DNA from: a plasmid
Assembly (NCBI RefSeq): GCF_058153355.1
Contig: NZ_JBLWLY010000002.1
Length of the DNA: 64,000 nucleotides
Direction: 5' to 3' (one strand)
Shown: positions 33,045 through 56,348 of the stretch, piece by piece
Layout: every line of letters begins with the position of its first letter
Position numbering within the stretch: position 1 is the stretch's first letter
Program-made: the position numbers and the translations under genes
The notes under the pieces: model-generated
Told to the model about the DNA's origin: nothing
What the model saw: the letters and a program-made list of their open reading frames with translations, nothing else
The model's database searches: none

Positions 33045-35480
33045 GTGTGTGCAGGAAAGAAGGGGGCAGAGCTGGTTTTGTTCTTGTTTTTTCGTCGGGC
33101 CGCGCTTGCTGTATCAGTCGCTTTCGCCAGTGCCACAGGTGTTGCAGGTGAAAAACTGGATATGTCCTTTATTCGGGGTGGTGCCGGGATTAATCCGGAA
33201 GTCTGGGCAGCGCTGAACGGCAGCTATGCACCGGGACGTTATTTGGTTGACCTGTCCCTGAACGGGAAGGAAGCCGGGAAACAGATACTGGATGTGACAC
33301 CACAGGACAGTGATGAACTGTGCCTGACAGAGGCATGGCTGACGAAGGCCGGGATTTACGTCAGTGCAGATTACTTTCGTGAGGGATATGACGCCACACG
33401 GCAGTGTTATGTGCTGACAAAAGCGCCGTCAGTGAAGGTGGATTTTGATGTTTCCACTCAGAGTCTGGCGCTGTCCCTTCCCCAGAAGGGGCTGGTGAAG
33501 ATGCCGGAGAACGTGGACTGGGATTACGGGACTGGTGCATTTCGCGTGAACTATAACGCGAACGCCAACACCGGCCGGAATAACACCTCGACCTTTGGCT
33601 CGGCAGATCTGAAGGTTAATATTGGGCACTGGGTGGTGAGTTCTTCTGCCTCAGCCAGCGGTGGTGACAGCGGGGATAACTCCGCCACGATAAACGCGTT
33701 CACGGCCACCCGGGCCATCCGCGCACTGAGTGCGGACCTGACGGTCGGGAAAACATCCACCGGGAGCAGTCTGCTGGGCAGTACGGGAACGTACGGAGTG
33801 TCGCTGAGCCGGAACAACAGCATGAAGCCGGGCAATCTGGGGTATACCCCGGTGTTCAGCGGCATTGCGAACGGGGCGTCGAGGGTGACACTGACACAGA
33901 ACGGGCGGTTGCTGCATTCGGAGATGGTGCCGGCAGGTCCGTTCTCCATCACGGATGTGCCGCTGTACACCAGTGGGGATGTGACCATGAAAATCACCGG
34001 CGAGGACGGTCGTGAGCAGACTCAGGTCTTCCCGTTGTCGGTGATGGCCGGGCAGTTAAGCCCGGGACAACACGAGTTCAGCGTGGCAGTCGGTTTGCCT
34101 GACGATGACAGTGACCTGAAAGGCGGCGTGTTTGCGGCGTCATACGGTTACGGTCTGGATGGACTGACGCTGCGCACCGGGGGCGTGTTTAACCGGGACT
34201 GGCAGGGTATTAGCGCCGGGGCTGTCCTGGGGCTGAGTTATCTGGGGGCAGTGTCTGCTGACGGGGCTTATGCCATGGCGAAATACCGTGACGGCAGCCG
34301 CAGCGGAAATAAGGTGCAGTTATCCTGGAGTAAACAACTGGAGATGACGAACACCGGACTGCGGGTGAGCTGGTCACGGCAGAGTGAGGAATATGAGGAC
34401 ATGTCCTCCTTTGACCCGACAGAGCTGTGGTCGCAGTCAAATCATGGTCGCCGGCCGAAGGATGAATGGAATGCCGGTATCAGTCAGTCGGTGGGGGGGC
34501 TGTTCAGTCTGTCGGTGTCCGGCTGGCAGCGGAGTTATTACCCGGCACAGATGACGGGCCGTTATCGGTACAGCGATGACAATGGTCTGGACACAGGGAT
34601 TACCGGTACCCTGAGCACACAGATTAAGGGCGTCAGTCTGAATCTGGGCTGGTCCGGCTCACGGAATTCGCAGGGAGAGAATAACAGGTCGGCGTCAGCC
34701 TCTATCTCGGTGCCATTCACGCTGTTTGAGCGTCGCTACAGCAGCAGTACGTCGGTGAGTACCAGCAAAGGCGGTGGCACGGGCTTCAGCACTGGCGTGT
34801 CCGGCTCGCTGAATGACCGTTTCAGCTATGGCTTGGGCGGCGGTCGTGATAGCGGTGGTGGTGTGAGTAGTTATCTAAACGCGTCGTACAGTGGTGACCG
34901 GGCTTATCTGAATGGTGCCCTGAACCACTCACAGTCCGGCGGAACCAGTGGTTCTGTATCAGTCAGCGGTTCGGTACTGGTCGTCCCGACGGCGAAAGAC
35001 ATTATGTTCAGCCGCACGACCGGGGACACCGTGGCCGTGGTGAACGTGAAGGATACACCGGGTGTGAAGGTGACGTTCGGTGACGGACAGACTGACAGCG
35101 ACGGCAACCTGGTGGTACCGCTGAACAGCTATGACTGGAACACGGTGACGATTGATGCGGGCACACTGCCGCTGAGCACCGAACTGACGAACACCAGTCA
35201 GAAGGTGGTGCCGACGGACAAGGCGGTGGTCTGGATGCCGTTTGATGCCCTGAAAGTCAAGCGTTACCTGCTGCAGGTGAAGCAGCGTGACGGTGAGTTT
35301 GTGCCAGGGGGAACCTGGGCACGTGACAGTAAGAACACACCGCTGGGCTTTGTAGCTAACAATGGTGTGCTGATGATTAACACGGTGGATGCGCCGGGTG
35401 ATATCACCCTAGGCCAGTGCCGGATACCTGCGGCCAGACTGCAGGATACTGAGAAACTACAGGAGATTACGTGTGAGTAA
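33045..35480 (+). CDS. fimbrial outer-membrane usher (FaeD-like)
   Basis: 811-aa ORF, usher-sized, between subunit and chaperone genes. Confidence 0.85.
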   Translation: MCAGKKGAELVLFLFFRRAALAVSVAFASATGVAGEKLDMSFIRGGAGINPEVWAALNGSYAPGRYLVDLSLNGKEAGKQILDVTPQDSDELCLTEAWLTKAGIYVSADYFREGYDATRQCYVLTKAPSVKVDFDVSTQSLALSLPQKGLVKMPENVDWDYGTGAFRVNYNANANTGRNNTSTFGSADLKVNIGHWVVSSSASASGGDSGDNSATINAFTATRAIRALSADLTVGKTSTGSSLLGSTGTYGVSLSRNNSMKPGNLGYTPVFSGIANGASRVTLTQNGRLLHSEMVPAGPFSITDVPLYTSGDVTMKITGEDGREQTQVFPLSVMAGQLSPGQHEFSVAVGLPDDDSDLKGGVFAASYGYGLDGLTLRTGGVFNRDWQGISAGAVLGLSYLGAVSADGAYAMAKYRDGSRSGNKVQLSWSKQLEMTNTGLRVSWSRQSEEYEDMSSFDPTELWSQSNHGRRPKDEWNAGISQSVGGLFSLSVSGWQRSYYPAQMTGRYRYSDDNGLDTGITGTLSTQIKGVSLNLGWSGSRNSQGENNRSASASISVPFTLFERRYSSSTSVSTSKGGGTGFSTGVSGSLNDRFSYGLGGGRDSGGGVSSYLNASYSGDRAYLNGALNHSQSGGTSGSVSVSGSVLVVPTAKDIMFSRTTGDTVAVVNVKDTPGVKVTFGDGQTDSDGNLVVPLNSYDWNTVTIDAGTLPLSTELTNTSQKVVPTDKAVVWMPFDALKVKRYLLQVKQRDGEFVPGGTWARDSKNTPLGFVANNGVLMINTVDAPGDITLGQCRIPAARLQDTEKLQEITCE

Positions 35481-36255: not shown

Positions 36256-36289
36256 TCGCCCTCCGGCATACGGAACAGAGGGGTAATAA

Positions 36290-38836: not shown

Positions 38837-38865
38837 TGGTTGCAGGGATATAAGGAGAGAAGAGA

Positions 38866-39953: not shown

Positions 39954-41180
39954 ATGTCAGGAACCATACCGAAAATCAAAACAGGTGAAAATGTTCTGTC
40001 TGCAGCCATTCAGCGCATTGAATGGCTATTTGGAACGTTTCCTTCTGTCTGCTTGTCCTTTTCTGGTGGTAAGGATTCTACCGTGCTTTTCCATCTTGTG
40101 TCCGAAGTGGCCCGCAAAAAGAGGCGTCGTTTTTCGGTATTGTTCATTGACTGGGAAGCACAATATCAATGCACCATTACGCATATTCAGAAGATGCAGA
40201 AGATGTACCTGGATGTGACGGACAGGTTTTACTGGGTGGCCCTTCCCCTGACTACGGTAAACGGTGTCTCTCAGTTTCAGCCGGAGTGGATATGCTGGGA
40301 GCCTGGTGTGACCTGGGTTCGCCATCCACCGGAATATGCTATTACGGATATGGCGTATTTTCCCTTTTACCGATATGCCATGACCTTTGAGGAATTTATC
40401 CCGGCGTTTTCCTCCTGGTTTGCCAGGGATAAATACCTGGTGGCTGTTCTGACCGGAGTCCGGGCAGATGAGTCCCTCAACCGCTTTATGGGACTGGTAT
40501 CCCGTCGCAAACAGAGATATGCCGATGATAAACCCTGGACTACGGCATCACCTGAAGGGTTTTATTACACCATGTATCCGTTGTATGACTGGAAAGCCCG
40601 TGATATCTGGATATATAACGCCAGAACCCGAGCTATCTACAATCCCCTGTATGACCTGATGCACCGTGCCTGTGTGCCGTTACGCAACATGCGTGTCTGT
40701 GAGCCTTTTGGTCCTGAACAGCGTAAGGGGCTGTGGCTTTATCATGTTCTGGAGCCGGAAACCTGGGCCAAGATGTGTGAGCGGGTGTCGGGTGCTGCCA
40801 GCGGGGCGCTTTATGCCAATGAGAGCGGTGCCTATTTTGCCCTGCGTAAGCGTATCACGAAGCCGCCTCATCATACCTGGCGTAGCTATGCGATGTTCCT
40901 GCTGGATGTGATGCCGGAAAGAACGGCAGAACATTACCGTAACAAAATTGCTGTCTACCTGCGCTGGTATCAGACGCGAGGCTTCCCGGATGACATTCCG
41001 GATGAACAGGAGAATGACCTGGGGGGCCGGGATATCCCGTCCTGGCGACGCATCTGTAAAACACTCATAAAAAATGATTTCTGGTGCCGGACCCTCTCCT
41101 TCAGTCCGAACAAAGCCCGGCACTATGAACGTTACCTGCAGCGTATGAAGGAAAGGAGGAAGGAATGGGGGATTCTGTGA
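39954..41180 (+). CDS. PAPS-reductase-family (PP-loop) protein, IbrA-like
   Basis: 408 aa with PP-loop motif SFSGGKDS near the N-terminus. Confidence 0.7.
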   Translation: MSGTIPKIKTGENVLSAAIQRIEWLFGTFPSVCLSFSGGKDSTVLFHLVSEVARKKRRRFSVLFIDWEAQYQCTITHIQKMQKMYLDVTDRFYWVALPLTTVNGVSQFQPEWICWEPGVTWVRHPPEYAITDMAYFPFYRYAMTFEEFIPAFSSWFARDKYLVAVLTGVRADESLNRFMGLVSRRKQRYADDKPWTTASPEGFYYTMYPLYDWKARDIWIYNARTRAIYNPLYDLMHRACVPLRNMRVCEPFGPEQRKGLWLYHVLEPETWAKMCERVSGAASGALYANESGAYFALRKRITKPPHHTWRSYAMFLLDVMPERTAEHYRNKIAVYLRWYQTRGFPDDIPDEQENDLGGRDIPSWRRICKTLIKNDFWCRTLSFSPNKARHYERYLQRMKERRKEWGIL

Positions 41181-41803
41181 CACCGGAGATACTTGGCAAC
41201 ATGATTCGTCAGTATTTCAGTCAGGTACGAACTGAAAAAGAGAGCATACAGGCTCTGAATCATCTGCGCAGAGTGCTTCATGAGGTCAGTCCTTTTGCAC
41301 AGGAGCCTGTGGACTGTGTGTTGTGGGTGAAAGCGGATGAGGTGGTGGCCAACGATTACAACCCTAATGTCATGGCACTAGGTGAGAAAAAACTACTGAA
41401 ACAGTCTCTGGAGAAAGATGGTTTCACACAACCGGTGGTGGTGTCAGAGGAGAAGAATCATTATCTGGTGGTGGATGGTTTTCATCGTCAGTTACTGGGG
41501 CGGGAAGCAGATACAGGAAAACGCCTGAGGGGCTGGTTGCCTGTAGTCTGTATTAATCCGGAGAGAAAGGGACAGGCCGCACGTATTGCCGCGACCATTC
41601 GACATAACCGGGCCAGGGGGAAACACCAGATCACTTTAATGTCTGATATTGTCAGGGATCTTTCACGTCTGGGCTGGACGAATGAACGTATTGGTACAGA
41701 GCTGGGAATGGACCAGGATGAAGTGCTGAGGCTGAAACAGATTAGCGGGCTGACAGAGTTGTTTCAGGAAGAGGATTTCAGCCCGGCTTGGACGGTTCGT
41801 TGA
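41165..41803 (+). CDS. ParB-like nuclease-domain protein, IbrB-like
   Basis: 212 aa with VVDGFHR (ParB/DGQHR-type motif); start overlaps upstream stop. Confidence 0.7.
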   Translation: MGDSVTPEILGNMIRQYFSQVRTEKESIQALNHLRRVLHEVSPFAQEPVDCVLWVKADEVVANDYNPNVMALGEKKLLKQSLEKDGFTQPVVVSEEKNHYLVVDGFHRQLLGREADTGKRLRGWLPVVCINPERKGQAARIAATIRHNRARGKHQITLMSDIVRDLSRLGWTNERIGTELGMDQDEVLRLKQISGLTELFQEEDFSPAWTVR

Positions 41804-42030
41804 TGCTGTTAAATATGGGCGGTATTTCTGAAAGTTGATACTTTGGGTAGAAAAAATGATACCGGAAACTATGAAGGATGTGCTTGTCAGGTGACTAGAC
41901 ACCATAGGTCTTAGGCTTTGATAACGGGATAAGATGAGCTGCTTTTCTCATACCATCAGGTGTGATGATGTCGCAGATTTACAAAATCTGATTGATTCTA
42001 AAGATGTATAAGTAAGGAAAAAGTTTTGAT

Positions 42031-42915
42031 ATGAAAAAACAGATATTTATTAATAATAAACCTCCTGTAGTCCCTTATTCAGGGGCGCACGCGAAAATAT
42101 TTAAATACATTGAAATCCCTCTGCCGTTTTTCTACTTTATCTATACATCAGGCGAACCATTCCACATGTCTGTCCAAAATACTGTTATTTATGTATCAAA
42201 ATACAATGGTATATTTATTAATAAATCAGTTCCTTTTTCTTTTTTATTTGACAGAGATATATCTGTTCTTCAAAGAAGAGATATTTGTGTTGTGCGATTT
42301 ACGTCAGAGGAGATAAGTGAACATAATGTTTTATTTGATCATGACTTTGAACGATTAAAAAAAATTTCCAAAGCTCAGCTTATATCTCCCGATTATGTTT
42401 TGATTGATTTTTCTAGTGGGGGGGAGGATGAATCCTACGCAATGTCCTGGTTAATATCTCAGTGTACTCATCAGTATACAGATAATAAAAAGACGGAGAC
42501 AGATGCTATTTACGATAAAGTGCGGAGTTCTTATTTGCTTTCATGTATTCTGCAAAAAAACGAAAATGTTGGGCTTATTCTTCATGCACCATCATTTGTT
42601 TCTGTGTCTGAAAAAATCGCCAGAATTGTGATGGCAAATTACTCCCGTAACTGGAGTACTTCCGAGTTGGCCAGTGCGGTTTTAATGAGTGAATCTTCTT
42701 TAAAAAGAAGAATGTACAAAGAGGTCGGTTCTATAAGTACATTTGTACATAAAATAAAGCTTACAGAAGCTATCAGGAAATTACGAAGGACAAATACTCC
42801 CATTTCTGTCATATCATCTGAGTTAGGTTACAGTTCACCATCGTATTTTTCTAAAGTTTTCTTTAAATATTTAAAGACATACCCTCAAAACATAAGGAAG
42901 AAAAATGGTCGGTAA
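42031..42915 (+). CDS. AraC-family transcriptional regulator (Rns/AggR-type position)
   Basis: 294 aa, low-GC gene; C-terminal region AraC-type HTH. Confidence 0.75.
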   Translation: MKKQIFINNKPPVVPYSGAHAKIFKYIEIPLPFFYFIYTSGEPFHMSVQNTVIYVSKYNGIFINKSVPFSFLFDRDISVLQRRDICVVRFTSEEISEHNVLFDHDFERLKKISKAQLISPDYVLIDFSSGGEDESYAMSWLISQCTHQYTDNKKTETDAIYDKVRSSYLLSCILQKNENVGLILHAPSFVSVSEKIARIVMANYSRNWSTSELASAVLMSESSLKRRMYKEVGSISTFVHKIKLTEAIRKLRRTNTPISVISSELGYSSPSYFSKVFFKYLKTYPQNIRKKNGR

Positions 42916-43102: not shown

Positions 43103-43144
43103 CGCGCCGCCTTCGTAAGCGGCTCGCCAGAACCGTATTGATAT

Positions 43145-44716
43145 TTACTGAGAGCTCAGATCAACTTTCCAGGGCAACAGATCGCGTACCCGGTTTGCCG
43201 GCCAGTCCTGGATATGTTCAATGACGTAACGCAGCCACTTTTCTGGCTCCACATTGTTCAGACGGCATGTGCCGATCAGCGAGTACAACACCGCAGCATG
43301 TTCACCACCGCTGTCAGAACCCGCGAAGAGCCAGTTTTTCCGGCCTACGGCCACTCCCCGTAAGGCGTTCTCTGCGATGTTGTTGTCGATTTCCACCCAG
43401 CCATTACTGCAGTACACGTTCAGTGCATCCCACTGTTTCAGCAGGTATGCGAACGCTTTTGCCGTGTCCGAGTGACGCGACAGTGTTTTCATCTGTTGCT
43501 GTATCCAGTCATACAGTGACTGCATCAGTGGCGCGGCTCTGGCTTTTCTTGCCGCCAGACGCTGTTCTGCTGAACAGCCCCGGACCTCTGCCTCGATGGC
43601 ATACAGTTCACCGATACGCTGCAGGGCTTCCGTGGTGATGTCGGTGGGCACTCTTGCATGCACATCGTGGATTTTTCTCCGGGCATGAGCCATACATGCG
43701 GCTTCCGTTATTCTGCCGGATTCGTACAACGCCCGGTAACCACCGTAAGCATCGGCCTGAAGCACTCCGCTGTAACCGGCCAGATGATTCTGTGGATGGA
43801 TACCTTTCCGGTCCGGGCTGTACGCGAACCAGACCGCCGGAGGCATTTCCGAACCGGCGTTACGGTCATCACGAACGTAGACCCACAGCCGGGCAGTCCT
43901 TGTTTTACCGCTGCCCGGCTCCTGGACCGGAACGGGGATATCATCGGCATGGACTTTACCGGGCATCAGCACATACTGGCGCAGGATGTCATACAGCGGT
44001 TCCAGCAGTTCAGCAACAGCACCTGTCCAGCGCCCCAGTGTGGCACGGCTCAGCTCCACGCCCTGACGACGGTATATTTCTGACTGGCGGTATAACGGCA
44101 GATGGTCTGCATATTTTCCAGCGACAACATGGGCCAGAAGCCCCGCTCCGGCATAACTGCGTGCAATGGGTTTTGAAGGCACCGGAGCCTGCACGATATG
44201 GTCGCACCGGCAACAGGCCAGTTTCGGACGTTGTGTTTCGATAACCTTAAAGGCGCTGCTGATAAGCTCCAGTTGCTCTGACACATCACATCCCAGAGAA
44301 CTGAGTTCGCCACCACAGGCCGGGCAGCATTCCTCTTCCGGACGGATGACCCGGGTTTCACGGGGAAGTGAGGCAGGTAACGGTTTACGGGCTGAAGACT
44401 GGCGCAGGGGAGATGGCAGTACCGGGTCATATTGCTCACCCAGCGTTTCCGCCATTTCTTCCTGAAGAGCGCTGATTCGCTCCTGTGCTTCCTGTATCTG
44501 CCGTTCGGTTTTTGCACGAAGTTTTTCTGAGCTTTTACCGAACTGCATGCGCTGCAGTTTTGCAACCAGCGCCTTCAGCCGGTTGATTTCGGAAGCATAA
44601 GCCGCCACCCGCTGTGAGAGCAGGCGGTTGTATTTCGCCATCTGGCGGATGGTGTCCTGTTGCGTCTGCAACAGTGCCCGCAGGCGGGCATTCTCATGAG
44701 CAAGTGAGGTGTCCAT
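43145..44716 (-). CDS. IS66 TnpC transposase
   Basis: 523 aa, intact. Confidence 0.85.
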
Positions 44717-44735
44717 ATCCTCACTTTACAACGGG

Positions 44736-45083
44736 TTATATGCGGATGCCAGCGCGTTCCGTTCGTTTCGGGTGTTTCCAGTCGATGCCCTCAAGAAGCA
44801 TGGATAACTGGGCCGGAGTAAGGTGCACCTTGCCGTCACGGGTGACCGGCCAGACGAAGCGGCCCCGCTCCAGGCGTCTGGTGAAGAGGCACAGTCCGTC
44901 ACTGTCAGCCCACAACACTTTTATCTGGTCACCCCGGCGTCCGCGGAAGATGAACAGATGCCCGGAGAACGGGTCATCCTTCAGGACGTTCTGAACTTTT
45001 GAGGCCAGGCCGTTAAAGCCATTTCGCATATCGGTGATACCTGCAACCAGCCAGATACGCGAACCTGCAGGGAAAGATATCAT
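44736..45083 (-). CDS. IS66 TnpB
   Basis: 115 aa. Confidence 0.8.
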   Translation of the reverse strand: MISFPAGSRIWLVAGITDMRNGFNGLASKVQNVLKDDPFSGHLFIFRGRRGDQIKVLWADSDGLCLFTRRLERGRFVWPVTRDGKVHLTPAQLSMLLEGIDWKHPKRTERAGIRI

Positions 45084-45694
45084 CAGTGGCTACTCCCTTT
45101 TATTTCGCGGATAAGTATCTGTAATAACGCCAGCGTCAGTTTACCTTTAAGCCTGAGAGTTCCGGCCGGCAGAACCAGCTCATAGCACAGACTGTCGGAC
45201 GGTGTATTTATCTGCTCTGGTTCCTGTGCCGGAGCCGGGATTTTATTATCCGGCTCCGGCGTTAACGTCACGGGAAGTAGCGATGTTTCATGTTCGCCGG
45301 GCGGCTGCAGGCCGCCGTTACGCCAGAGATGCCGCCAGTTAAAGAGCAGGTTATCGTTGATTCCATTCTCACGAGCTATTTGTGCGACACAGGCACCGGG
45401 TAAAAGAGTTTGCTGAACAAGTCTCCATTTAAACTCCGGTGAAAATCGGTTCCGGCGGGGTTTCTCTGCTTTCACAGGCTGAGTCACGGTCGGGGTTGAA
45501 GGATATCGCCCCGGGAAAAGAGCCCGGGCCAGTTGCCCGCAGGAATATTCGCCGGAAAGAGGCCAGTCAGTGAATACCTGGTGAAATCGCCTCACCAGAG
45601 AAAAAATGGCGGTTTTGCTGACACCAGTCTGCGCAGAAATGCGCGGGTACGACAGTGACTCGTCAAATCTCAGCTGTAGCACACGCAGGATCAA
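45083..45694 (-). CDS. IS66 OrfA with unusual 90-aa N-terminal extension
   Basis: C-terminal 110 aa orfA-like ([28 protein letters not shown]); N-terminal part unlike other copies. Confidence 0.5.
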   Translation of the reverse strand: MILRVLQLRFDESLSYPRISAQTGVSKTAIFSLVRRFHQVFTDWPLSGEYSCGQLARALFPGRYPSTPTVTQPVKAEKPRRNRFSPEFKWRLVQQTLLPGACVAQIARENGINDNLLFNWRHLWRNGGLQPPGEHETSLLPVTLTPEPDNKIPAPAQEPEQINTPSDSLCYELVLPAGTLRLKGKLTLALLQILIREIKGSSH

Positions 45695-45732
45695 TTCCGG
45701 ATTATCTGCCAGTACCGCCTTTCGTGCATTCG

Positions 45733-46451: not shown

Positions 46452-46639
46452 ATATCAGCACAGAAACCTGCGAAATTCTGCGTAATTACAGGGCCGTGAT
46501 TAATGCGCGGCGTCGTGAAATGGGGCAGAAACCGCTCACCACCGCGCAGATTGTTGATGAAATCTGCGATTTTGTGGCGAATCAGCAGGCGGTTTTCCTC
46601 GGTGGTCACTACATCCTTCAGGGCAGCAGAAACAGGTGA
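46448..46639 (+). CDS. hypothetical small protein
   Basis: 63-aa ORF overlapping the upstream stop. Confidence 0.4.
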   Translation: MNISTETCEILRNYRAVINARRREMGQKPLTTAQIVDEICDFVANQQAVFLGGHYILQGSRNR

Positions 46640-46827
46640 TACAGGGGCAGGCGGTTGAGGCCGCCTGTCAGCCCGCGCGAAAACCCCTGGCAGGCTGGCG
46701 CCTGCCGGAAGGGAAGCGGGCCACGCTGGCGCGTCGCCCGTTACCCTTCCCGTCTGTGATGTGTCTGACTCAGGAGTGTTTCTTTCTTATGTTATGGAAC
46801 TGTTCCTGATGTTGTTGTTCCTTTATC

Positions 46828-47295
46828 TGCTGCTCTGATTCTGACTACTGCAGTGTTGTTCTGTCTGCCGGGCGCACCTTCGGCTCCCGGCTGCCTGGCG
46901 GCATCTGGTCGTCAGGCCCGACTCCGACAGGCAGCTGCTGGCGCACCTGCCAGTCTCCGCCGAACCCGCTGGCGCGGTTTCGGGCTGTCGCTACGGTCCG
47001 ATGCGTGAAAACCCCGGGCTTGCAGCGACCGTTCCGGTCGCGCCGCCTCTGTCGCGCCGTGGCCTGCGCTCCTGGCATCCCGGCAAAAGGCCGCCGGGAT
47101 GTAAGGCGCAACGCCGTTTCGCAAACCGCGCTTCACGTCGTTGCGGCGGGTCCCTGCCCGTTGTTGTGTCCGGTGCCATTCACCTGTTTAAGCCCCTTGC
47201 GGCGAAGGTTCTCAAACAGGTGATGGTGAATACCGGAGGGAACAAAAGGCCGGTCCCCGCAAAACGTCAAAACCGCGGCTCCCGAAACTCAACAG
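46828..47295 (+). repeat. leading-region repeat upstream of ssb (Frpo/ssi-like single-strand promoter candidate), copy 1
   Basis: GC-rich structured sequence repeated at 51998..52640; the ORFs predicted inside are identical between copies and look spurious. Confidence 0.55.
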
Positions 47296-47334
47296 ATGAT
47301 GGGGGCTGAAAACATCAACAGAAGGAGACACATC

Positions 47335-47874
47335 ATGGCAGTTCGTGGCATTAACAAGGTCATTCTCGTAGGACGCCTGGGTAAAGATCCGGAAGTCCGT
47401 TACATCCCCAACGGGGGCGCAGTGGCAAACCTGCAGGTGGCCACGTCAGAAAGCTGGCGTGACAAACAGACGGGGGAGATGCGGGAGCAGACAGAATGGC
47501 ATCGCGTGGTGCTGTTCGGCAAGCTCGCGGAAGTGGCAGGTGAATATCTGCGCAAGGGCGTGCAGGTCTACATCGAAGGCCAGCTTCGTACCCGTAGCTG
47601 GGAGGATAACGGTATCACCCGTTACGTCACCGAAATCCTTGTTAAAACCACGGGCACCATGCAGATGCTGGGACGTACCGCAGGTGCTCAGACTCAGCCG
47701 GAAGAGGGGCAACAGTTCAGCGGTCAGCCTCAGCCGGAACCACAGGCGGAGGCCGGTACGAAAAAAGGTGGCGCGAAAACGAAAGGCCGTGGACGTAAGG
47801 CCGCGCAGCCCGAGCCTCAGCCGCAACCGCCGGAGGGGGAGGATTACGGGTTTTCAGACGATATCCCGTTCTGA
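47335..47874 (+). CDS. ssb: plasmid single-stranded DNA-binding protein
   Basis: [23 protein letters not shown]..., Gly/Pro/Gln-rich tail and acidic C-terminus DDIPF. Confidence 0.9.
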
Positions 47875-48224: not shown

Positions 48225-50183
48225 ATGTCAGTTACAGAGTTTAAGGTAAAAGCGGGGCGTAAATCCAGCCGTAAACCGTCAAAAGTGCAGGAGACTGCAC
48301 TGTCTGCCCTGCTGGCGCAGACGGAAGAAGTGAGCGTGTCGCTGGCCTCGCTGATTAAATCACCGCTGAATGTGCGCACGGTGCCGTATTCCGCAGAGTC
48401 CGTCAGCGAACTGGCGGAGTCCATTAAGGGCGTCGGCCTGTTGCAGAATCTGGTTGTTCATGCCCTGTCGGGTGAGCGTTACGGTGTCGCCGCAGGTGGT
48501 CGCCGACTGGCAGCACTCAACATGCTGGCAGAGCGCAACATCCTTCCGGCTGACTGGCCTGTACGTGTAAAGGTTATTCCGCAGGAACTGGCGACTGCCG
48601 CATCAATGACTGAAAACGGTCATCGTCGGGATATGCACCCTGCCGAACAGATTGCCGGATTCCGCGCAATGGCGCAGGAAGGCAAAACACCTGCACAAAT
48701 CGGTGATTTGCAGGGCTATTCACCCCGCCACGTTCAGCGAATGCTGAAACTGGCTGACCTTGCCCCGGTTATCCTCGATGCGCTGGCAGAAGACCGCATC
48801 ACCACCGAACACTGTCAGGCGCTGGCGCTGGAGAACGACACCGCGCGTCAGGTGCAGGTGTTTGAAGCCGCCTGTCAGTCGGGATGGGGAGGTAAACCGG
48901 AAGTACAGACCATTCGTCGTCTGGTGACCGAAAGTGAAGTGGCGGTGGTGGGGAACACTAAATTCCGCTTCGTGGGGGCTGATGCCTTCTCGCCAGATGA
49001 ACTGCGCACCGATTTGTTCAGCGACGACGAGGGTGGCTATGTGGACTGTGTTGCGCTCGATGCTGCCCTGCTGGAAAAACTCCAGGCTGTTGCTGAACAC
49101 CTTCGGGAAGCCGAAGGCTGGGAATGGTGCGCCGGACGCATGGAGCCTGTCGGTTTCTGCCGTGAGGATGCCGGAACATACCGCTGTCTGCCGGAGCCGG
49201 AAGCGGTGCTGACGGAGGCAGAAGAAGAACGCCTGAACGAACTGATGGCACGTTACGACGCGCTGGAAAACCAGTGTGAGGAATCTGACCTGCTGGCAGC
49301 AGAAATGAAGCTGATTGACTGCATGGCGAAGGTCAGGGCGTGGACGCCGGAGATGCGTGCCGGAAGTGGCGTGGTGGTGTCCTGGCGTTACGGTAATGTG
49401 TGTATCCAGCGTGGTGTGCAGTTACGCAGTGAGGATGATGCGGCTGACGACGCTGACCGCACAGAACAGGTGCAGGAAAAAGCGTCAGTGGAGGAAATCA
49501 GTCTGCCACTGCTGACGAAAATGTCTTCCGAACGCACGCTGGCAGTCCAGGCGGCACTGATGCAGCAACCGGACAAATCCCTGACACTGCTGGCATGGAC
49601 GCTCTGCCTGAATGTGTTTGGCAGCGGGGCGTACAGTAAACCAGCACAAATCAGCCTGGAATGTGAACATTATTCGCTGACCAGCGATGCGCCATCGGGG
49701 AAGGAAGGTGCCGCATTCATGGCGCTGATGGCAGAAAAAGCCCGTCTTGCTGCCCTGTTACCGGAGGGATGGGCACGGGACATGACGACATTCCTGTCAC
49801 TCAGTCAGGAGGTGCTGTTATCCCTGCTCAGTTTCTGCACCGCATGCAGCCTTAACGGTGTCCAGACCCGCGAGTGTGGTCACACGTCACGCAGTCCGCT
49901 TGACTCGCTGGAAACCGCTATCGGATTCCACATGCGCGACTGGTGGCAGCCGACAAAAGCAAACTTCTTCGGACACCTGAAAAAGCCGCAGATTATCGCA
50001 GCCCTGAATGAGGCAGGGCTGTCCGGTGCCGCACGGGACGCGGAGAAGATGAAGAAAGGTGATGCGGCTGAACATGCAGAGCACCATATGAAAGACAACC
50101 GCTGGGTTCCAGGCTGGATGTGTGCACCACATCCACAGACAGATGCCACTGAACGCACCGATAACCTGGCTGATGCCGCCTGA
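48225..50183 (+). CDS. ParB-like nuclease-domain protein of the leading region (652 aa)
   Basis: N-terminal ParB-like region (LLQNLVVHA...GGRRLAALN); size and position typical for F-like plasmids. Confidence 0.75.
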   Translation: MSVTEFKVKAGRKSSRKPSKVQETALSALLAQTEEVSVSLASLIKSPLNVRTVPYSAESVSELAESIKGVGLLQNLVVHALSGERYGVAAGGRRLAALNMLAERNILPADWPVRVKVIPQELATAASMTENGHRRDMHPAEQIAGFRAMAQEGKTPAQIGDLQGYSPRHVQRMLKLADLAPVILDALAEDRITTEHCQALALENDTARQVQVFEAACQSGWGGKPEVQTIRRLVTESEVAVVGNTKFRFVGADAFSPDELRTDLFSDDEGGYVDCVALDAALLEKLQAVAEHLREAEGWEWCAGRMEPVGFCREDAGTYRCLPEPEAVLTEAEEERLNELMARYDALENQCEESDLLAAEMKLIDCMAKVRAWTPEMRAGSGVVVSWRYGNVCIQRGVQLRSEDDAADDADRTEQVQEKASVEEISLPLLTKMSSERTLAVQAALMQQPDKSLTLLAWTLCLNVFGSGAYSKPAQISLECEHYSLTSDAPSGKEGAAFMALMAEKARLAALLPEGWARDMTTFLSLSQEVLLSLLSFCTACSLNGVQTRECGHTSRSPLDSLETAIGFHMRDWWQPTKANFFGHLKKPQIIAALNEAGLSGAARDAEKMKKGDAAEHAEHHMKDNRWVPGWMCAPHPQTDATERTDNLADAA

Positions 50184-50237
50184 TGAACAACCACACCGCC
50201 CCGCCGGAGACGGGGCGGCAGCAAGGGAGATACTGTG

Positions 50238-51290
50238 ATGAAAACTGAACTGACCCTGAATGTATTACAGACCATGAGTGCACAGGAATATGAAGATATC
50301 CGGGCTGCCGGAAGTGATGAACGCCGTGAGCTGACACACGCCGTGATGCGGGAACTGGATGCGCCGGACAACTGGACGATGAATGGCGAGTACGGCAGCG
50401 AGTTCGGCGGCTTTTTCCCCGTCCAGGTCCGTTTCACGCCTGCCCACGAACGTTTTCACCTGGCGTTATGTTCACCGGGCGATGTCTCTCAGGTCTGGGT
50501 GCTGGTTCTGGTGAATGCCGGTGGTGAGCCGTTTGCGGTGGTTCAGGTGCAGCGGCGGTTTGCACCGGAAGCTGTCAGCCATTCACTGGCACTGGTTCCC
50601 CTCAGCGCAGAGCAACAGGCCGCATGGCGGGCGCTGGCAGAGACGGAAAAACGCCGCCATCAGGGAAACTTGCTGGCGGAATATCCGTATGCGGGGGCGT
50701 TTTTCCGCTGTCTGAACGGAAGCCGCAGGATATCGCTGTCTGACCTGCGATTTTTCATGCCGTCCCTGACCGCAGAAGAACTGCACGGCAACCGTCTTCA
50801 GTGGCTGTATGCCATCGATGTGCTGATTGAAACACAGGGCGAGGTCTGCCTCCTTCCCCTTCCCGGTGATGCAGCAGAGCGGTTGTTTCCGTCGGTGCGG
50901 TTCCGTGTCAGGGAGCGCAGTCGCCACAAATCCGCACTGGTCATGCAGAAGTACAGCCGTCAGCAGGCACGGGAGGCAGAGCAGAAAGCCCGTGCGTACC
51001 AGGCACTGGTTGCTCAGGCTGAAATCGAACTGGCGTTCCATTCACCGGAAACAGTCGGAAGCTGGCATGCCCGCTGGAGTGACCGGGTGGCAGAGCATGA
51101 CCTGGAAACCCTGTTCTGGCAGTGGGGTGAGCGTTTTCCGTCACTGGCCGGGATGGAACGCTGGCAGTGGCAGGATATGCCATTCTGGCAGGTTATCGCG
51201 GAAGCCAGTCTGGCAGCAAGAGAGGTCGGTCACGCTGTCCGTGAGATGGAGCGGTGGATGGTGCCGAACAAACTCCGGGAGGCAGCGTAA
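50238..51290 (+). CDS. psiB: PsiB-PsiA in-frame fusion protein
   Basis: N-terminal about 119 aa PsiB-like ([13 protein letters not shown]...), remainder PsiA-like to the end. Confidence 0.7.
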
Positions 51291-51479
51291 TGCGGCAACA
51301 ATCACACAGATTACCCGTAAACAGCCTGAATGAGCGGGTTATTTTCAGGAAAAGTGAATGTGGTCAGCGTGCTGGTATATGGGCTATGATGTGCCCGGCG
51401 CTTGAGGCTTTCTGCCTCATGACGTGAAGGTGGTTTGTTACCGTGTTGTGTGGCAGAAGGACAAAAGCCCCGTAGTTAA

Positions 51480-51545
51480 TTTTCATTAACCCACGAGGCC
51501 CTGCATGCTTAGACAACATCAGGATAGCCTCTTACCGCGCTTTGC
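51480..51545 (-). ncRNA. sok: Sok antisense RNA (approximate)
   Basis: expected antisense partner upstream of hok and overlapping the mok start; bounds not determined. Confidence 0.35.
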
Positions 51546-51717
51546 GCAAGGAGAAGAAGGCCATGAAACTACCACGCAGCTCCCTTGTCTGGTGTGTGTT
51601 GATCGTGTGTCTCACACTGTTGATATTCACTTATCTGACACGAAAATCGCTGTGCGAGATTCGTTACAGAGACGGATACAGGGAGGTGGCGGCTTTCATG
51701 GCTTACGAATCCGGTAA
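51505..51717 (+). CDS. mok: Mok (modulator of hok translation)
   Basis: 70-aa ORF overlapping hok in another frame. Confidence 0.6.
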
Positions 51718-51721: not shown

Positions 51722-51997
51722 CAACCTGGAGGCGGGCGTAGGCCCGCCTTTTCAGGGCTGATGCTGGTCTGACTGCACTGAAGCGCCTTTATAAAGGGGC
51801 TGCTGGTTCGCCGGTGGCCCCTTTCTCCTTGCTGGCATTGTGCGGGCATGAACAACCAGGCTGCCAGGAAGGCCGTTTCCCTTCGGGAACGGGGAAGAAC
51901 GCGCGCCTGCGGCGCCCGTTCTTCTCCTCCGTCTTCTCTGTTTATGGCCAGTTGTCAGAAATGACATTACCTTTCCCGTGATTATTCTCTTTTTCTT

Positions 51998-52640
51998 CCT
52001 GCTCTGATTCTGACTACTGCAGTGTTGTCCTGTCTGCCGGGCGCACCTTCGGCTCCCGGCTGCCTGGCGGCATCCGGTCGTCAGGCCCGACTCCGACAGG
52101 CAGCTGCTGGCGCACCTGCCAGTCTCCGCCGAACCCGCTGGCGCGGTTTCGGGCTGTCGCTACGGTCCGATGCGTGAAAACCCCGGGCTTGCAGCGACCG
52201 TTCCGGTCGCGCCGCCTCTGTCGCGCCGTGGCCTGCGCTCCTGGCATCCCGGCAAAAGGCCGCCGGGATGTAAGGCGCAACGCCGTTTCGCAAACCGCGC
52301 TTCACGTCGTTGCGGCGGGTCCCTGCCCGTTGTTGTGTCCGGTGCCATTCACCTGTTTAAGCCCCTGTCGCCGGGGGCAAAGACAGCCACAACCTGCCGC
52401 ACTGACTGTCTAGGGTAAATGAACAGCCCACAAAATTTTTTACCCAAAACCCGGTAAAAAATTTTGCGTTCTGCCCCGGACAGGTGCGTCAGGCCGTGGC
52501 AGTGATGCCCCTTGCGGCGAAGGTTCTCAAACAGGTGATGGTGAATACCGGAGGGAACAAAAGGCCGGTCCCCGCAAAACGTCAAAACCGCGGCTCCCGA
52601 AACTCAACCGATGATGGGGGCTGAAAACCAGAGAGAGGAG
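51998..52640 (+). repeat. leading-region repeat, copy 2, with about 130-bp internal insertion
   Basis: same sequence as 46828..47295 plus an extra block (tgtcgccgggggcaaagacagcc...gtgatgcccc). Confidence 0.55.
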
Positions 52641-52648
52641 AAAGCAGG

Positions 52649-52936
52649 ATGAGTACCCGAAATATCCACGTTAACACCGCGTCGTACACGCTTCTTGTTG
52701 CCGGGAAGAAAAAAAACACCGGGGAAGAGTGGGACGTCCTGGAATTCAGCAGCCTGACTGAGCTGAAAAAATATCGCAAAAGCCACCCGGAAAAGATGGC
52801 CTTCAGCTATAGCTACGCGCTCAGCCGGGGTGTGGATACGCAGTTCCGCCATATCAACATTGCGGAAGCCGATCACTTCAAACAGTTCCTGCGTCAGATT
52901 AAGCGTGCCGGCCTCGATATCCGGGCGATCTGCTGA
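52649..52936 (+). CDS. hypothetical leading-region protein
   Basis: 95-aa ORF directly after the repeat. Confidence 0.5.
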   Translation: MSTRNIHVNTASYTLLVAGKKKNTGEEWDVLEFSSLTELKKYRKSHPEKMAFSYSYALSRGVDTQFRHINIAEADHFKQFLRQIKRAGLDIRAIC

Positions 52937-53055: not shown

Positions 53056-53877
53056 ATGCGATTAGCTTCCCGTTTTGGTCGGTATAATTCCATCCGCCGT
53101 GAACGTCCTTTAACGGATGATGAATTAATGCAGTTCGTGCCTTCGGTATTTTCCGGTGATAAACATGAGTCCCGGAGTGAACGTTATACGTATATTCCAA
53201 CAATCAATATCATCAATAAGTTACGTGATGAAGGTTTCCAGCCATTCTTTGCCTGTCAGAGTCGGGTTCGTGATTTGGAACGTCGCGAATACAGTAAACA
53301 TATGTTACGTCTTCGCAGGGAAGGGCATATTAACGGGCAGGAAGATCCTGAAATTATCCTGCTTAATTCACATGATGGTTCATCCAGTTATCAGATGATC
53401 CCCGGAATTTTTCGTTTTGTCTGCACAAATGGCTTGGTGTGCGGAAATAATTTTGGCGAAATCCGCGTTCCACATAAAGGTGATATTGTCGGGCAGGTTA
53501 TCGAGGGAGCGTATGAAGTGCTCGGTGTCTTTGATAAGGTCACTGATAATATGGAGGCGATGAAAGAAATTCATCTTAACAGTGACGAGCAACATTTATT
53601 TGGCAGAGCTGCACTGATGGTCAGGTATGAAGATGAAAATAAAACGCCAGTGACACCTGAACAGATAATTACTCCCCGTCGTCGGGAAGATAAACAGAAC
53701 GATCTCTGGACAACCTGGCAGCGGGTTCAGGAGAATATGATAAAAGGTGGATTATCGGGGCGAAGTGCCTCCGGGAAAAATACCAGGACAAGAGCCATTA
53801 CAGGTATTGATGGTGATATAAGAATCAACAAGGCGTTATGGGTGATTGCCGAACAGTTCAGAAAGTGGAAGTCATGA
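53056..53877 (+). CDS. DUF932-family protein (leading region)
   Basis: 273-aa ORF; family assignment from memory. Confidence 0.55.
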   Translation: MRLASRFGRYNSIRRERPLTDDELMQFVPSVFSGDKHESRSERYTYIPTINIINKLRDEGFQPFFACQSRVRDLERREYSKHMLRLRREGHINGQEDPEIILLNSHDGSSSYQMIPGIFRFVCTNGLVCGNNFGEIRVPHKGDIVGQVIEGAYEVLGVFDKVTDNMEAMKEIHLNSDEQHLFGRAALMVRYEDENKTPVTPEQIITPRRREDKQNDLWTTWQRVQENMIKGGLSGRSASGKNTRTRAITGIDGDIRINKALWVIAEQFRKWKS

Positions 53878-55095: not shown

Positions 55096-55479
55096 ATGGC
55101 TAAGGTGAATCTGTATATCAGCAATGATGCTTATGAAAAAATAAACGCGATTATTGAAAAACGTCGACAGGAGGGGGCGAGAGAAAAAGATGTCAGTTTT
55201 TCAGCAACGGCTTCAATGCTTCTTGAACTGGGTCTTCGTGTATATGAGGCTCAGATGGAGCGCAAAGAGTCTGCATTTAATCAGGCCGAGTTTAATAAAC
55301 TACTTCTTGAATGCGTTGTAAAAACACAGTCATCAGTAGCGAAAATTTTGGGTATTGAGTCTCTCAGTCCTCATGTCTCAGGAAATCCAAAGTTTGAATA
55401 TGCCAATATGGTTGAAGATATCAGAGAGAAGGTGTCGGTTGAGATGGAAAGGTTCTTTCCAAAAAATGATGATGAATAA
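55096..55479 (+). CDS. traM: TraM
   Basis: 127 aa MAKVNLYISNDAYEKINAIIEKRRQEG... Confidence 0.9.
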   Translation: MAKVNLYISNDAYEKINAIIEKRRQEGAREKDVSFSATASMLLELGLRVYEAQMERKESAFNQAEFNKLLLECVVKTQSSVAKILGIESLSPHVSGNPKFEYANMVEDIREKVSVEMERFFPKNDDE

Positions 55480-55670
55480 AGGGAAATAAATTTTGACTTT
55501 GTTCAAATATCAGAGTTTTTAATGGTTCAAACTGATGACAATAATCAGAATAATTAGTATATTAATTACGTGGTTAATGCCACGTTAAAATTTGAACTTG
55601 AAAATCGCCGATGCAGGGAGCTTGTCCCTCCCTGCATCGACTGTCCATAGAATCCTTTGAGGAGGTTCCT

Positions 55671-56348
55671 ATGTGTGCGATGGATACTAGAGAAAGAGCA
55701 CTCATACGTCAATCAGGCCTGCCGGAAATTATTTTATCCGCAAAATATCCAGTCTGTGTCCGCACAGAGTCTACCGTTCCCGGTGACCGGATTATCGCCG
55801 TGAACAGTCTGGATGGTGCCCTGACCAATAATGAGCAGACCGCCTCCGGCGGTGTGGTGGTTGCCACCGTCAACAAAAAGCCCTTTACGTTCATTCTGGA
55901 AACAGAACGTGGTCTGAACCTTTCCATTCAGGCCGTTCCCCGTGAAGGCGCGGGGCGTACCATTCAGCTGGTCAGTGACCTGCGCGGAACCGGAGAAGAA
56001 GCCGGTGCGTGGGAAACGTCCACGCCTTACGAATCCCTGCTTGTGACCATCAGCCAGGCCGTCCGTGGCGGAAAATTACCCGCAGGCTGGTATCAGGTCC
56101 CGGTGACAAAGGAAACCCTGCAGGCCCCGGCGGGGCTGTCTTCAGTGGCAGATGCCGTATGGACGGGGAATCATCTGAAGATGGTCCGCTTTGCCGTGGA
56201 AAATAAAACGCTGTCTGCCCTGAATATCCGGGAAAGTGACTTCTGGCAGCCGGGAACCCGTGCCGTGATGTTCAGCCAGCCTGCCAGCCAGTTACTGGCA
56301 GGTGCGCGCATGGATGTGTATGTCACCCGTGACGGGGAGGGCAACTGA
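55671..56348 (+). pseudogene. traJ'-'traK fusion left by deletion of traJ through traE
   Basis: ATG at 55671 with RBS gaggagg; first about 36 codons TraJ-like, then TraK-like sequence from [13 protein letters not shown] to the end. Confidence 0.65.

Follow-up and report, generated by a model that had tools for sequence, protein, structure and literature searches.

The GC-rich repeat located directly upstream of ssb in this plasmid returns about 5 kb further along as a longer second copy. A preliminary description placed both copies among the single-strand promoter and initiation elements of F-like leading regions, which raises the question of whether each of them can still work as such. Our analysis makes it quite probable that the two copies are Frpo units of which the second is intact, while the first, part of which is displayed above, has suffered a deletion and is dead as a promoter. 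In the Frpo family the transferred strand enters the recipient 5'-first and its Frpo segment folds into a long imperfect hairpin mimicking a duplex promoter, where the host's sigma-70 RNA polymerase initiates. Its transcript has two uses, as messenger for the leading genes downstream and as primer for complementary-strand synthesis, and the resulting double-stranding removes the hairpin and turns the promoter off. Such promoters set the first minutes of expression after entry of a resistance or virulence plasmid, and it is worth knowing which copies are intact.

Global alignment delimited copy 1 at 46819-47313 (495 nt) and copy 2 at 51988-52628 (641 nt), both as elements of the - strand. The unit occurs twice in the window, i.e. 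the whole 64-kb stretch of DNA that was analysed. In the repeat search, 46819-47118 matched 51988-52287 at 98% and 47192-47313 matched 52507-52628 at 99%. About 484 nt are shared at 99.4% identity, which is far above chance, and the copies differ by three mismatches (46860, 46906 and 47294 in the core 46830-47313) and one 146-bp indel, the initial 11 bases of the alignment being ragged. The near-identical repeat was thus borne out where it had been reported, and an additional block does exist in the second copy, its size being 146 bp (52361-52506) instead of the roughly 130 bp given before. The GC content of copy 1 is 64%, against 51% for the whole window.

Copy 1 ends 21 nt before the ATG (47335) of an intact plasmid ssb (47335-47874, + strand; full-length match to NF010292, 381 bits), at the position held in F by Frpo2 (ssp1b). 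Copy 2 ends 20 nt before a 95-aa gene at the position of F ygeA (52649-52936, + strand), all 95 residues of which equal those of F YgeA. This is the site of F Frpo1 (ssiD, ssp1a). The second gene of the operon (53056-53877, + strand) is at the ygeB position, collinear with F, and carries a DUF932-domain annotation in related plasmids. Copy 2 is preceded by hok/sok, sok being found via Rfam at 51396-51565. From ssb onward the genes and sites (ssb, ParB-like gene, psiB, psiA, hok/sok, repeat, ygeA, DUF932 gene, SLT gene, nic, traM) follow the order of F, and annotation confirmed the reported placement of the repeats before ssb and, after hok, before the next leading-region gene. An exact match (0 mismatches) to GTGGGGTGT/GGTGC, which we take to be the F oriT nick site, is present on the - strand at 54769-54782, and traM was identified by a profile match at 55096-55479. 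The leading region is situated at lower coordinates than the nick (about 54775). With the nick sequence on the - strand and every leading gene encoded on the + strand, the - strand is the one that is transferred and used as template.

On the published F map, Frpo2 precedes ssb and Frpo1 precedes ygeA/ygeB, about 5 kb apart and with flm/hok between them. The copies described here are spaced 5.17 kb apart, and because homology, layout, this spacing and the flanking genes all match F, the assignment to the F-like family of leading-region single-strand promoters was right. Judged by sequence, both repeats are the unit carrying the class-1 single-stranded-DNA promoter of such regions (Frpo, ssi, ssp1).

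The intact copy and its apical hairpin

Copy 2 combines full-length homology to the class 1 promoters with a hairpin in the transferred strand and a position in the leading region. It aligns at 89% over the entire 351 nt of F ssiD/Frpo (D90178), a sequence that maps to the Frpo1 site upstream of ygeA in F, and shows 90.5% identity to the Frpo1 region and 93% to the Frpo2 region of F. By folding and homology, the - strand of 52273-52628 (356 nt) is the equivalent of F ssiD/Frpo, forming one long imperfect hairpin with a predicted energy of -103 kcal/mol (z -10.0), while the + strand folds more weakly (-92.9 kcal/mol, z -7.4). Two layouts of promoter boxes, both positionally conserved, emerged as candidates from an enumeration of hexamers, which cannot choose between them. 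In the first, an A-tract is followed by TTGTGG, 15 nt and TAGACA on the 3' arm; in the second, TTGAGA, 17 nt and CATCAC are found on the 5' arm. Linear sigma-70 consensus scans of both strands of both copies gave nothing relevant and no strong consensus. The Rfam search returned only the traJ 5' UTR, FinP and sok and left the repeats unmatched, which is no surprise for a DNA element. Copy 2 is most likely a working class-1 single-strand promoter for ygeA-ygeB, whose hairpin would drive these genes once the transferred - strand enters from the nick.

The block of 52361-52506 is the apical hairpin of this structure (146 nt, - strand; -53.6 kcal/mol, z -8.0), at whose borders copy 2 has GCCCCT as a direct repeat of 6 bp (52361-52366 and 52507-52512). 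Its apex is the only A/T-rich tract of the element, its 3' arm carries the TTGTGG and TAGACA boxes, and CATCAC marks the foot of its 5' arm; all four are within the segment deleted from copy 1. The duplex in which the element is best conserved in sequence, between CTGTCCGGGG and CCCT(A/G)GACAG, is also situated here. The hairpin is supported by covariation. In the apical stems of 10 Frpo/ssi homologues, 93% of the cells are paired compared to 82% after shuffling, with none of 500 shuffles reaching as high a value, and nine pairs are changed on both sides, slid controls pairing at 37-48%. In copy 2 the block shows 95% identity to that of F Frpo2 and 81% to that of Frpo1.

An apical block was found in F ssiD, F Frpo2, ColIb-P9 ssi1-3 and the elements from Serratia and an insect-gut metagenome, i.e. 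in every reference Frpo/ssi sequence examined, and a public plasmid search recovered it in at least 5000 plasmids. In addition, the Frpo2-acrIIA4 construct for which leading-region protection was seen in vivo consists of block and leader only, the block being its 5' end. Because no outgroup (F, ColIb-P9, Serratia, insect element) lacks it and these plasmids share it, the block is, on comparative grounds, the ancestral centre of the Frpo element and not an accessory insert. Its earlier description as an extra is therefore to be reversed. An inserted mobile element could be ruled out, since all outgroups have the block and its two arms covary.

The deleted copy upstream of ssb

Alignment to copy 2 places the deletion junction of copy 1 at 47192-47197, where a single GCCCCT is left. 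The precise loss of 146 bp between two GCCCCT repeats, at the foot of the apical hairpin, is the kind of scar that replication slippage across a hairpin leaves, and we infer that slippage was the mechanism. The junction is rare, being found in only about 13-15 public plasmids. In the plasmids with the same excision (about 15) the deletion is always at the ygeA-side copy, and the complete assemblies that show it are independent and come from more than one laboratory and country. No other plasmid among the public ones examined has a deletion on the ssb side. Recombination with the known ygeA-side deletion alleles was rejected as the simplest account of how copy 1 came by its deletion: in the 22-50 nt or so next to the junction, none of the differences that mark their flanks occur in copy 1, which has 99.4% identity to copy 2 in the same plasmid.

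Copy 1 retains both arms of the basal stem on the - strand. The 3' arm (47104-47191) has the same pairing partners in both copies and matches the end of F ssiD. The 5' arm (47192-47313), delimited by repeat search, fold and F alignment, is at the same time the leader between the Frpo hairpin and ssb; its F counterpart is about 97% identical and is the leader of the Frpo2-acrIIA4 construct. In the fold predicted for the - strand of 47104-47313 the basal stem is all that forms, at -50.6 kcal/mol (z -4.5). A stable structure in the transferred strand, on which the preliminary description had made its reading depend, can therefore still form in copy 1. Further from ssb, a conserved segment common to both F copies (47009-47103, - strand; the F match begins at 47009) contains small hairpins, CATCCCGGC...GCCGGGATG and GCGACCGTTCCGGTCGC, and hairpins of different sequence occupy the equivalent position in the ColIb-P9 and insect-metagenome elements.

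As to promoter function, the flagged copy probably does not hold up as the element it was taken for. Its central hairpin is missing and only the basal stem and the upstream module are left. In the best local alignment with D90178 no more than the 117-nt flank on the leader side is covered, the other retained flank (189 nt) showing 97% identity to the Frpo1 side and 91% to the Frpo2 side of F. Full-length homology is interrupted by the absence of the central 146 nt, and of the long hairpin with promoter boxes the basal stem alone persists; the leading-region position, upstream of + strand ssb with the - strand transferred, is kept. The missing part is the portion of the hairpin needed by every candidate promoter layout. 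Under the second layout the -35 candidate TTGAGA (47215-47220 on the + strand) stays in the basal stem, and the loss in copy 1 is confined to the -10, the start site and the initial stretch of template. No sigma-70-like duplex promoter was found in 46500-47400, and the window does not contain the ssp2/Frpo3 region, the single-strand promoter that comes next upstream in F.

With the apical hairpin lost and basal stem, leader and GC-rich module kept, copy 1 is probably non-functional as a Frpo single-strand promoter. Most likely it is a deletion derivative, a defunct leftover in a transfer region that is decaying. The transfer module is degraded by a traJ-to-traK deletion, a psiB-psiA fusion and an IS66 truncation, and a klcA/ardB homologue is cut at 45731, adjoining IS66 genes. 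The genes deprived of their own zygotic-induction promoter in this plasmid would be ssb, the ParB-like gene, the psiB-psiA fusion gene and hok. Transcription of ssb could come from an unrecognised duplex promoter or from upstream read-through, and the stable basal hairpin could, according to the folding model, have kept some other role.

The GC-rich module and alternative explanations

Each copy begins with a GC-rich, non-coding structured module of 179 nt, delimited by alignment and folding at 46830-47008 (- strand) in copy 1 and 51999-52177 in copy 2. No match to it was found in the F locus, where F carries a different sequence. It is widespread in F-like plasmids, being present in at least 5000 plasmids, 4096 of these at 80% coverage or more. 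Diverged homologues were sought by scanning contigs with the 17-mer GCGACCGTTCCGGTCGC, a GC-rich palindrome for which most matches were chance occurrences in unrelated genomes. Seven loci had any similarity to the repeat unit; five of them were plasmid contigs of E. coli type from assemblies filed under other labels (L030, L031, L048, L120), so that only Citrobacter FP75 (L021) and Kosakonia cowanii (L095) were usable. The module is 68-75% conserved in these two, with long invariant blocks, and the indels among these homologues measure 1, 2 and 4 nt, which are not multiples of 3. The - strand folds better (-79.3 kcal/mol, z -4.5) than the + strand (-72.5 kcal/mol, z -2.8), and many of the predicted pairs are G-T wobbles, possible on the - strand only.

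These properties bear on two proposals beyond the deletion itself. The more far-reaching one links recurrent excision between the GCCCCT repeats, at either copy, with a module that functions as a single-strand structure, and as a pair we regard it as doubtful. If it were true, there would be natural plasmids in which either of the two early operons is no longer tied to zygotic induction, and the module, located 3' of the Frpo hairpin in the transferred strand, might brake complementary-strand synthesis and so prolong the life of the single-stranded promoter hairpin.

The second proposal accepts that copy 1 is dead as a promoter and supposes that its basal stem and module have kept a role in the transferred strand. 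By analogy, they could form a barrier slowing complementary-strand synthesis, as F ssp2 does, or a boundary or terminator for upstream transcripts. The repetition of the widespread module with each Frpo copy, its conservation into Citrobacter and Kosakonia with non-triplet indels, the better fold and the wobble pairs of the - strand, and the fact that another F single-strand promoter hairpin is a proven roadblock all speak in its favour. However, the covariation term of RNAalifold lends no support (+2.56, from 5 sequences only, 3 of them close relatives), F itself has a different sequence at the module site, and the published roadblock activity belongs to ssp2 and not to ssp1/Frpo. When the whole window was searched for homology linking the module to F ssp2/Frpo3, and hence to the class 2 promoters and roadblocks, none was found. 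We consider such a retained activity unlikely.

A sequencing or assembly artefact across the strong hairpin is very unlikely as the origin of the deletion. A hairpin of -54 kcal/mol flanked by direct repeats is a classic substrate for polymerase jumping in vitro, and the ssb-side deletion was seen in no other public plasmid examined. However, the identical excision is found at the other copy in independent complete assemblies, the near-identical intact copy 2 posed no problem to the assembly of the same record, and the decay nearby makes a real deletion plausible.

It is also highly improbable that both copies are working promoter or initiation elements and that copy 2 has merely gained the 146-bp block as an accessory insertion. 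Both copies do occupy canonical positions, both keep basal stem and leader, and the -35-like TTGAGA is still in duplex in copy 1. Against this, the distribution of the block over all outgroups and at least 5000 plasmids makes it ancestral, its stems covary, it holds the sole A/T-rich tract and the most conserved duplex, the construct functional in vivo comprises block and leader only, and the form without a block is rare.

The remaining alternative concerns the open reading frames within the repeats, which overlap in several frames on both strands, measure 51-102 aa and are rich in Arg, Pro, Gly and Ala, as expected at 64-69% GC. Their earlier description as the same in both copies applies to those lying wholly in the shared part, save for single-residue changes from the three core mismatches; those crossing the indel differ (102 versus 82 aa on the + strand, 45 versus 78 aa on the - strand). 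They look like artefacts, as was suspected before, given the lack of family matches, the non-triplet indels and the several overlapping frames. That the repeats encode small proteins can practically be dismissed: open frames are available and RefSeq annotates equivalents in related plasmids (WP_001426396.1, WP_244572324.1) as 'hypothetical protein' or 'single-stranded DNA-binding protein', but nine of them gave nothing beyond one chance-level match in the Pfam/NCBIfam search (E up to 1), they overlap on both strands with a GC-driven composition, the 146-bp indel does not amount to whole codons and alters the frames across it, the Citrobacter and Kosakonia indels likewise break triplets, and the substitutions in the hairpin are compensatory between its arms.

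The account of an intact Frpo unit before ygeA and a deleted one before ssb thus concerns an already known element, copy 1 being a minor natural deletion allele. The window itself is ordinary, with the element half decayed and a transfer module that also lacks traJ through traK. The case shows that calling "Frpo" by similarity can mislead, since about 350 nt of near-perfect similarity are possible without the central 146-nt hairpin. The about 15 public plasmids with natural Frpo1-side deletions are mostly predicted to be conjugative, and could be used to ask how early expression of ygeA or of ssb/psiB matters outside the laboratory.

Comparison with known single-strand promoters

The class 2 promoter ssp2/Frpo3 of F resembles the present repeats in being GC-rich and structured and in lying on the transferred strand of a leading region. 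Its hairpin is a proven replication roadblock, an activity mapped to ssp2 and not to the ssp1/Frpo units. The region reported for the F element (L005 936-1500, upstream of F ardB/klcA) has no match in the whole window; it is absent because the leading region is truncated at 45731.

Plasmid ColIb-P9 (IncI1) also carries dispersed, Frpo-like direct repeats in its leading region, ssi1-ssi3, each preceding an operon read from the transferred strand. They share a homologous apical hairpin in which changes are compensatory and the CTGTCCGGGG / CCCTGGACAG duplex is invariant, whereas their basal parts are of other sequence, and three intact copies are present there compared to one intact and one truncated copy here. 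For the class 1 promoters of pESBL, start sites have been mapped by 5' RACE.

The closest relatives are the two Frpo elements of F. Copy 1, like F Frpo2 (ssp1b), is located directly upstream of plasmid ssb and precedes the same operon, with 91% identity over 47009-47197 and a collinear block of 94.4% from 47192 onward, but it is without the 146-nt apical hairpin that F has. Engineered deletion of Frpo2 in F abolished early production of Ssb and YfjA and did not lower transfer frequency. Copy 1 can be seen as a natural counterpart of that deletion. Copy 2 corresponds to F Frpo1 (ssiD, D90178; ssp1a) in its position, its full 351-nt alignment, its long hairpin and the identical YgeA that follows, and differs from it by an apical block of the Frpo2 type. 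Both copies also differ from F by the 179-nt module upstream of the unit, which is not the F one. Finally, the two copies in the window are 99.4% alike, compared to 92% between the copies in F, which suggests a recent homogenisation of the former.

The repeat as a Frpo/ssi/ssp1 unit

The GC-rich repeat noticed in the preliminary description is real at both of its places, before ssb (copy 1) and between hok/sok and ygeA (copy 2). A repeat search of the window paired 46819-47118 with 51988-52287 and 47192-47313 with 52507-52628, and global alignment placed copy 1 at 46819-47313 and copy 2 at 51988-52628. The copies are 99.4% identical; over the core from 46830 onward they differ by three mismatches (46860, 46906 and 47294) and one indel, a block found by alignment of both copies in copy 2 only (52361-52506), which is 146 bp long and not about 130 bp as first estimated. 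GCCCCT bounds the block on both sides (52361-52366 and 52507-52512), and a single GCCCCT is left in copy 1 (47192-47197). The window as a whole has 51% GC, against which copy 1 reaches 64% and the upstream part of that copy 69%. BLAST of the unit revealed no third copy in the whole window. In related plasmids a third Frpo-type unit, about 89-91% identical (L001 131-559, L009 1423-1786), is located further from oriT, before a DUF3560/methyltransferase operon; it has no counterpart in the window. The repeat unit was also found, with main matches of 87-95% identity, on contigs of a Streptomyces morookaense assembly (L030/L031) and of Oscillibacter (L048) and Collinsella (L120) MAGs, most likely through contamination or binning errors from enterobacterial plasmids.

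The supplementary material of Samuel et al. 2024 (PMC11541004) provided the reference Frpo/ssi sequences. F ssiD (D90178) is placed directly before ygeA in the F locus with 98% identity, and is Frpo1; its whole 351 nt align with window positions 52271-52620 at 89%. In copy 2 the ssiD-equivalent region (52273-52628) matches the Frpo1 region of F at 90.5% identity and its Frpo2 region at 93%, and both window copies, both F copies and both pMRY16-002_1 copies form one family in a six-way alignment. The repeat is a known element, the Frpo/ssi/ssp1 repeat unit. The D90178 record shows a few differences from NC_002483 (L005 8233-8580, 98% identity); a 1-nt indel in it turns CATCACT into CATACT, a much better -10 match than that of the real plasmid.

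On the - strand, one long hairpin with imperfect pairing is predicted for 52273-52628 (-103 kcal/mol; z -10.0 relative to dinucleotide-shuffled sequences), compared with -92.9 (z -7.4) on the + strand; the stronger - strand fold fits the conserved G-T wobble pairs, which are present only on that strand. In an alignment of ten homologues (window, F, pMRY16-002_1, ColIb-P9 ssi1-3, Serratia and an insect metagenome), pairing over the 22 base pairs in the apical stems was 93%, versus 82% in column shuffles, with nine pairs altered on both sides. These pairing values were reached by none of 500 shuffles, and registers slid by 1-3 columns gave pairing of only 37-48%. Homology, fold and covariation together make copy 2 a well-supported intact member of class 1. 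The single-strand promoter elements proposed initially for both copies could therefore be upheld for copy 2, by its homology to F Frpo/ssiD, but not for copy 1, an apparent deletion derivative without the central hairpin. A hairpin on the transferred strand is predicted in copy 2, and copy 1 keeps the basal stem, which folds alone (- strand 47104-47313, -50.6 kcal/mol, z -4.5).

Loss of the apical hairpin from copy 1

The block is the apical part of the copy 2 hairpin (alone -53.6 kcal/mol, z -8.0) and includes the element's sole A/T-rich tract. The sequence of its duplex, CTGTCCGGGG / CCCT(A/G)GACAG, hardly varies among the homologues as a set, whereas the stems beneath covary freely. It was found in every reference sequence, was matched in at least 5000 PLSDB plasmids and, with its 146 nt, opens the Frpo2-acrIIA4 construct, which made F about 225-fold more Cas9-resistant, only when it stood on the transferred strand within the leading region (PMC11541004). 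Its presence in all references, in these plasmids and in a working construct shows that the block is ancestral and central to the element, and copy 1 is a deletion derivative rather than the basic form. The opposite reading, of the block as an extra over a basic form, is made unlikely by its occurrence in every reference sequence. Two defining class-1 tests, both on the central hairpin, were negative for copy 1, and the description that suits this copy best is a natural remnant left by a deletion in Frpo2.

Two candidate box layouts with conserved positions were identified in the homologue alignment. Layout (a), which reads away from the loop along the 3' arm, consists of an A-tract, TTG(T/C)GG, a spacer of 15-17 nt including the unpaired TTCATTTA, and T(A/G)GAC(A/T); it lies wholly within the block and fits the A+T-rich UP element upstream of the -35 described by Samuel et al. 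(PMC11541004). Layout (b), on the 5' arm towards the loop, consists of TTGAGA, 17 nt and CATCAC (CATACT in the old D90178 record, a 9/12 match), with its -35 in the retained basal stem and its -10, start site and first template stretch in the block. Under either candidate layout, the deletion would take away parts needed for initiation. The strongest single argument for boxes within the block and leader is the make-up of the working Frpo2-acrIIA4 construct; depending on the sequence around its insertion site, layout (b) may still apply.

The distribution of the deletion was followed by megablast with a 46-nt probe (47172-47217) that has the junction in its middle and shares at most 26 contiguous matching bases with block-containing DNA, so that no megablast seed is possible there. 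Matches came from 14 records in PLSDB and from 6 genomes in a set of 5426 complete E. coli genomes; these counts are lower bounds, as a 28-nt exact match is required and other flanks are missed. One representative per distinct lineage was inspected, and five RHB-series records were assigned by their match coordinates, which are those of CP099238. One match, in a Klebsiella plasmid, was intact. All others carried the deletion in the hok-ygeA copy, and among the representatives of the probe-matched public records none carried it before ssb. The identical 146-bp excision was present at seven inspected loci, and has been further remodelled into a perfect palindrome in plasmid A of strain D10 and in pH282-3. 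In these two (L010 1201-1250, from E. coli D10, and L012) the loop GCGGCGAAGGTTCTC has become GCGACAGGGGCTT and the arms form a perfect inverted repeat, a pattern resembling quasi-palindrome correction by template switching.

Copy 1 lacks every flanking difference seen in the public deletion alleles, and this, with its near-identity to its own copy 2, would most simply make the ssb-side deletion an independent event. A hairpin between short direct repeats is a classical substrate for slipped-strand deletion in replication, and the block may have been lost from copy 1 in this way, between the GCCCCT repeats. It is mildly new that the same exact removal of the hairpin has apparently happened repeatedly in natural plasmids, at one copy or the other.

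The GC-rich module and the internal ORFs

The unit is common to both F copies from 47009 onward, and the distinct GC-rich module at 46830-47008 has no counterpart in F. The module was found in at least 5000 plasmids, usually one to three times per plasmid, and its homologues in Citrobacter sp. FP75 and Kosakonia cowanii (three copies in the latter) show 68-75% conservation; as a conserved companion travelling with each unit it is also mildly new. Long invariant blocks alternate in its homologues with indels of 1, 2 and 4 nt, so no reading frame is conserved. The - strand is more stably folded than its shuffled versions (z -4.5; + strand z -2.8) and many predicted pairs are G-T; the covariation term, from five sequences only, was non-supportive. 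The module may be a structural element of the transferred strand. It could act as a boundary between operons, or possibly as a brake on complementary-strand synthesis like ssp2 (bioRxiv 10.64898/2026.01.09.698686).

Pfam and NCBIfam searches with nine ORFs (46-102 aa) taken from the two copies gave no match. They overlap on both strands and are rich in Arg, Pro, Gly and Ala, as expected for GC-rich non-coding DNA, which bears out the preliminary description of them as artefacts; they had also been considered the same in both copies, but those spanning the indel change with it. The 51-aa WP_244572324.1, within the Frpo leader (L001 8981-9136, L002-L004 2981-3136; window equivalent 52484-52624), carries the RefSeq label "single-stranded DNA-binding protein", which looks like annotation carry-over, and WP_001426396.1, a 76-aa ORF in the GC-rich module, is a RefSeq hypothetical protein. 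Both are probably false gene calls in non-coding structured DNA.

The leading region and its likeness to F

Based on NCBIfam profiles and comparison with F, and on Rfam for sok, the order is a truncated klcA/ardB homologue, a DUF1380 gene, copy 1, full-length ssb (47335..47874), a ParB-like gene (48225..50183), psiB/psiA, hok/sok (sok 51396-51565), copy 2, ygeA (52649..52936, product 100% identical to F YgeA), a DUF932 gene (53056..53877), an SLT gene (- strand) and traM (55096..55479). A perfect palindrome at 53874-53928 (27-nt arms and a 1-nt centre, ATGATAATATAAGTAAAGCCCCGAAAA T TTTTCGGGGCTTTACTTATATTATCAT) begins within the DUF932 gene stop codon; it looks like a bidirectional terminator and gave weak spurious microRNA matches in Rfam. 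The sequence GTGGGGTGT/GGTGC, which we take to be the F nick site, matched the - strand at 54769-54782 with no mismatches, identifying this as the strand that is transferred. Its 5' end goes in first, starting at about 54775 and heading to lower coordinates, and it is the template for every + strand leading gene.

No sigma-70-like duplex promoter was found in 46500-47400. The class-2 promoter ssp2/Frpo3 is reported to lie upstream of the F ardB/klcA gene (bioRxiv 10.64898/2026.01.09.698686), and the corresponding F interval (L005 936-1500) has no match in the whole window. Together with the copy 1 deletion, this would leave the ssb-to-hok segment with no recognisable single-strand promoter. 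By comparison with F, the klcA/ardB homologue is cut at 45731, adjoining the IS66 genes tnpC (43145..44716), tnpB (44736..45083) and tnpA (45083..45694), all three on the - strand, and the distal piece of the F leading region (L005 1-935) is 22 kb off, at 23156-24093. A second copy of the IS66-family region (43114-45730), with 99.8% identity over 1969 bp, is found past the tra remnant at 61170-63138. Among the cargo that separates the two leading-region fragments are a group II intron reverse transcriptase/maturase gene (28598-29830) and, within 33045-42915, genes for a fimbrial usher of the PefC/AfrB family (33045..35480) and a regulator of the AraC family (42031..42915), a content that suggests a mosaic virulence plasmid.

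Other changes also point to decay of the module. A 351-aa ORF (50235-51290; profiles PsiB 1-127 joined to PsiA 4-238) is an in-frame fusion of psiB and psiA. At the junction (50582-50595) 98 bp comprising the psiB end and psiA start are gone relative to F, between two 14-nt direct repeats, and the frame is kept. In another ORF (55611..56348, 245 aa) about 35 N-terminal residues of TraJ run directly into TraK, which begins at its residue 51; compared with pMRY16-002_1, about 2.6 kb is gone (the rest of traJ, traY, traA, traL, traE and the traK start), and the traJ 5' UTR and FinP are still there (Rfam). Judged from this gene content, the plasmid should not be self-transmissible, and there would then be little selection to keep zygotic-induction promoters.

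In F, deletion of Frpo2 abolished early Ssb/YfjA production and did not lower transfer frequency, and deletion of Frpo1 reduced transfer about 3.7-fold (PMC9849209); the surviving intact copy in the window is the one of greater weight in F. The F map places Frpo1 before ygeA/ygeB and Frpo2 before ssb, at 92% identity and a spacing of about 5 kb that takes in the hok/sok-type flm locus (PMC9849209), and this published leading-region layout is the layout of the window.
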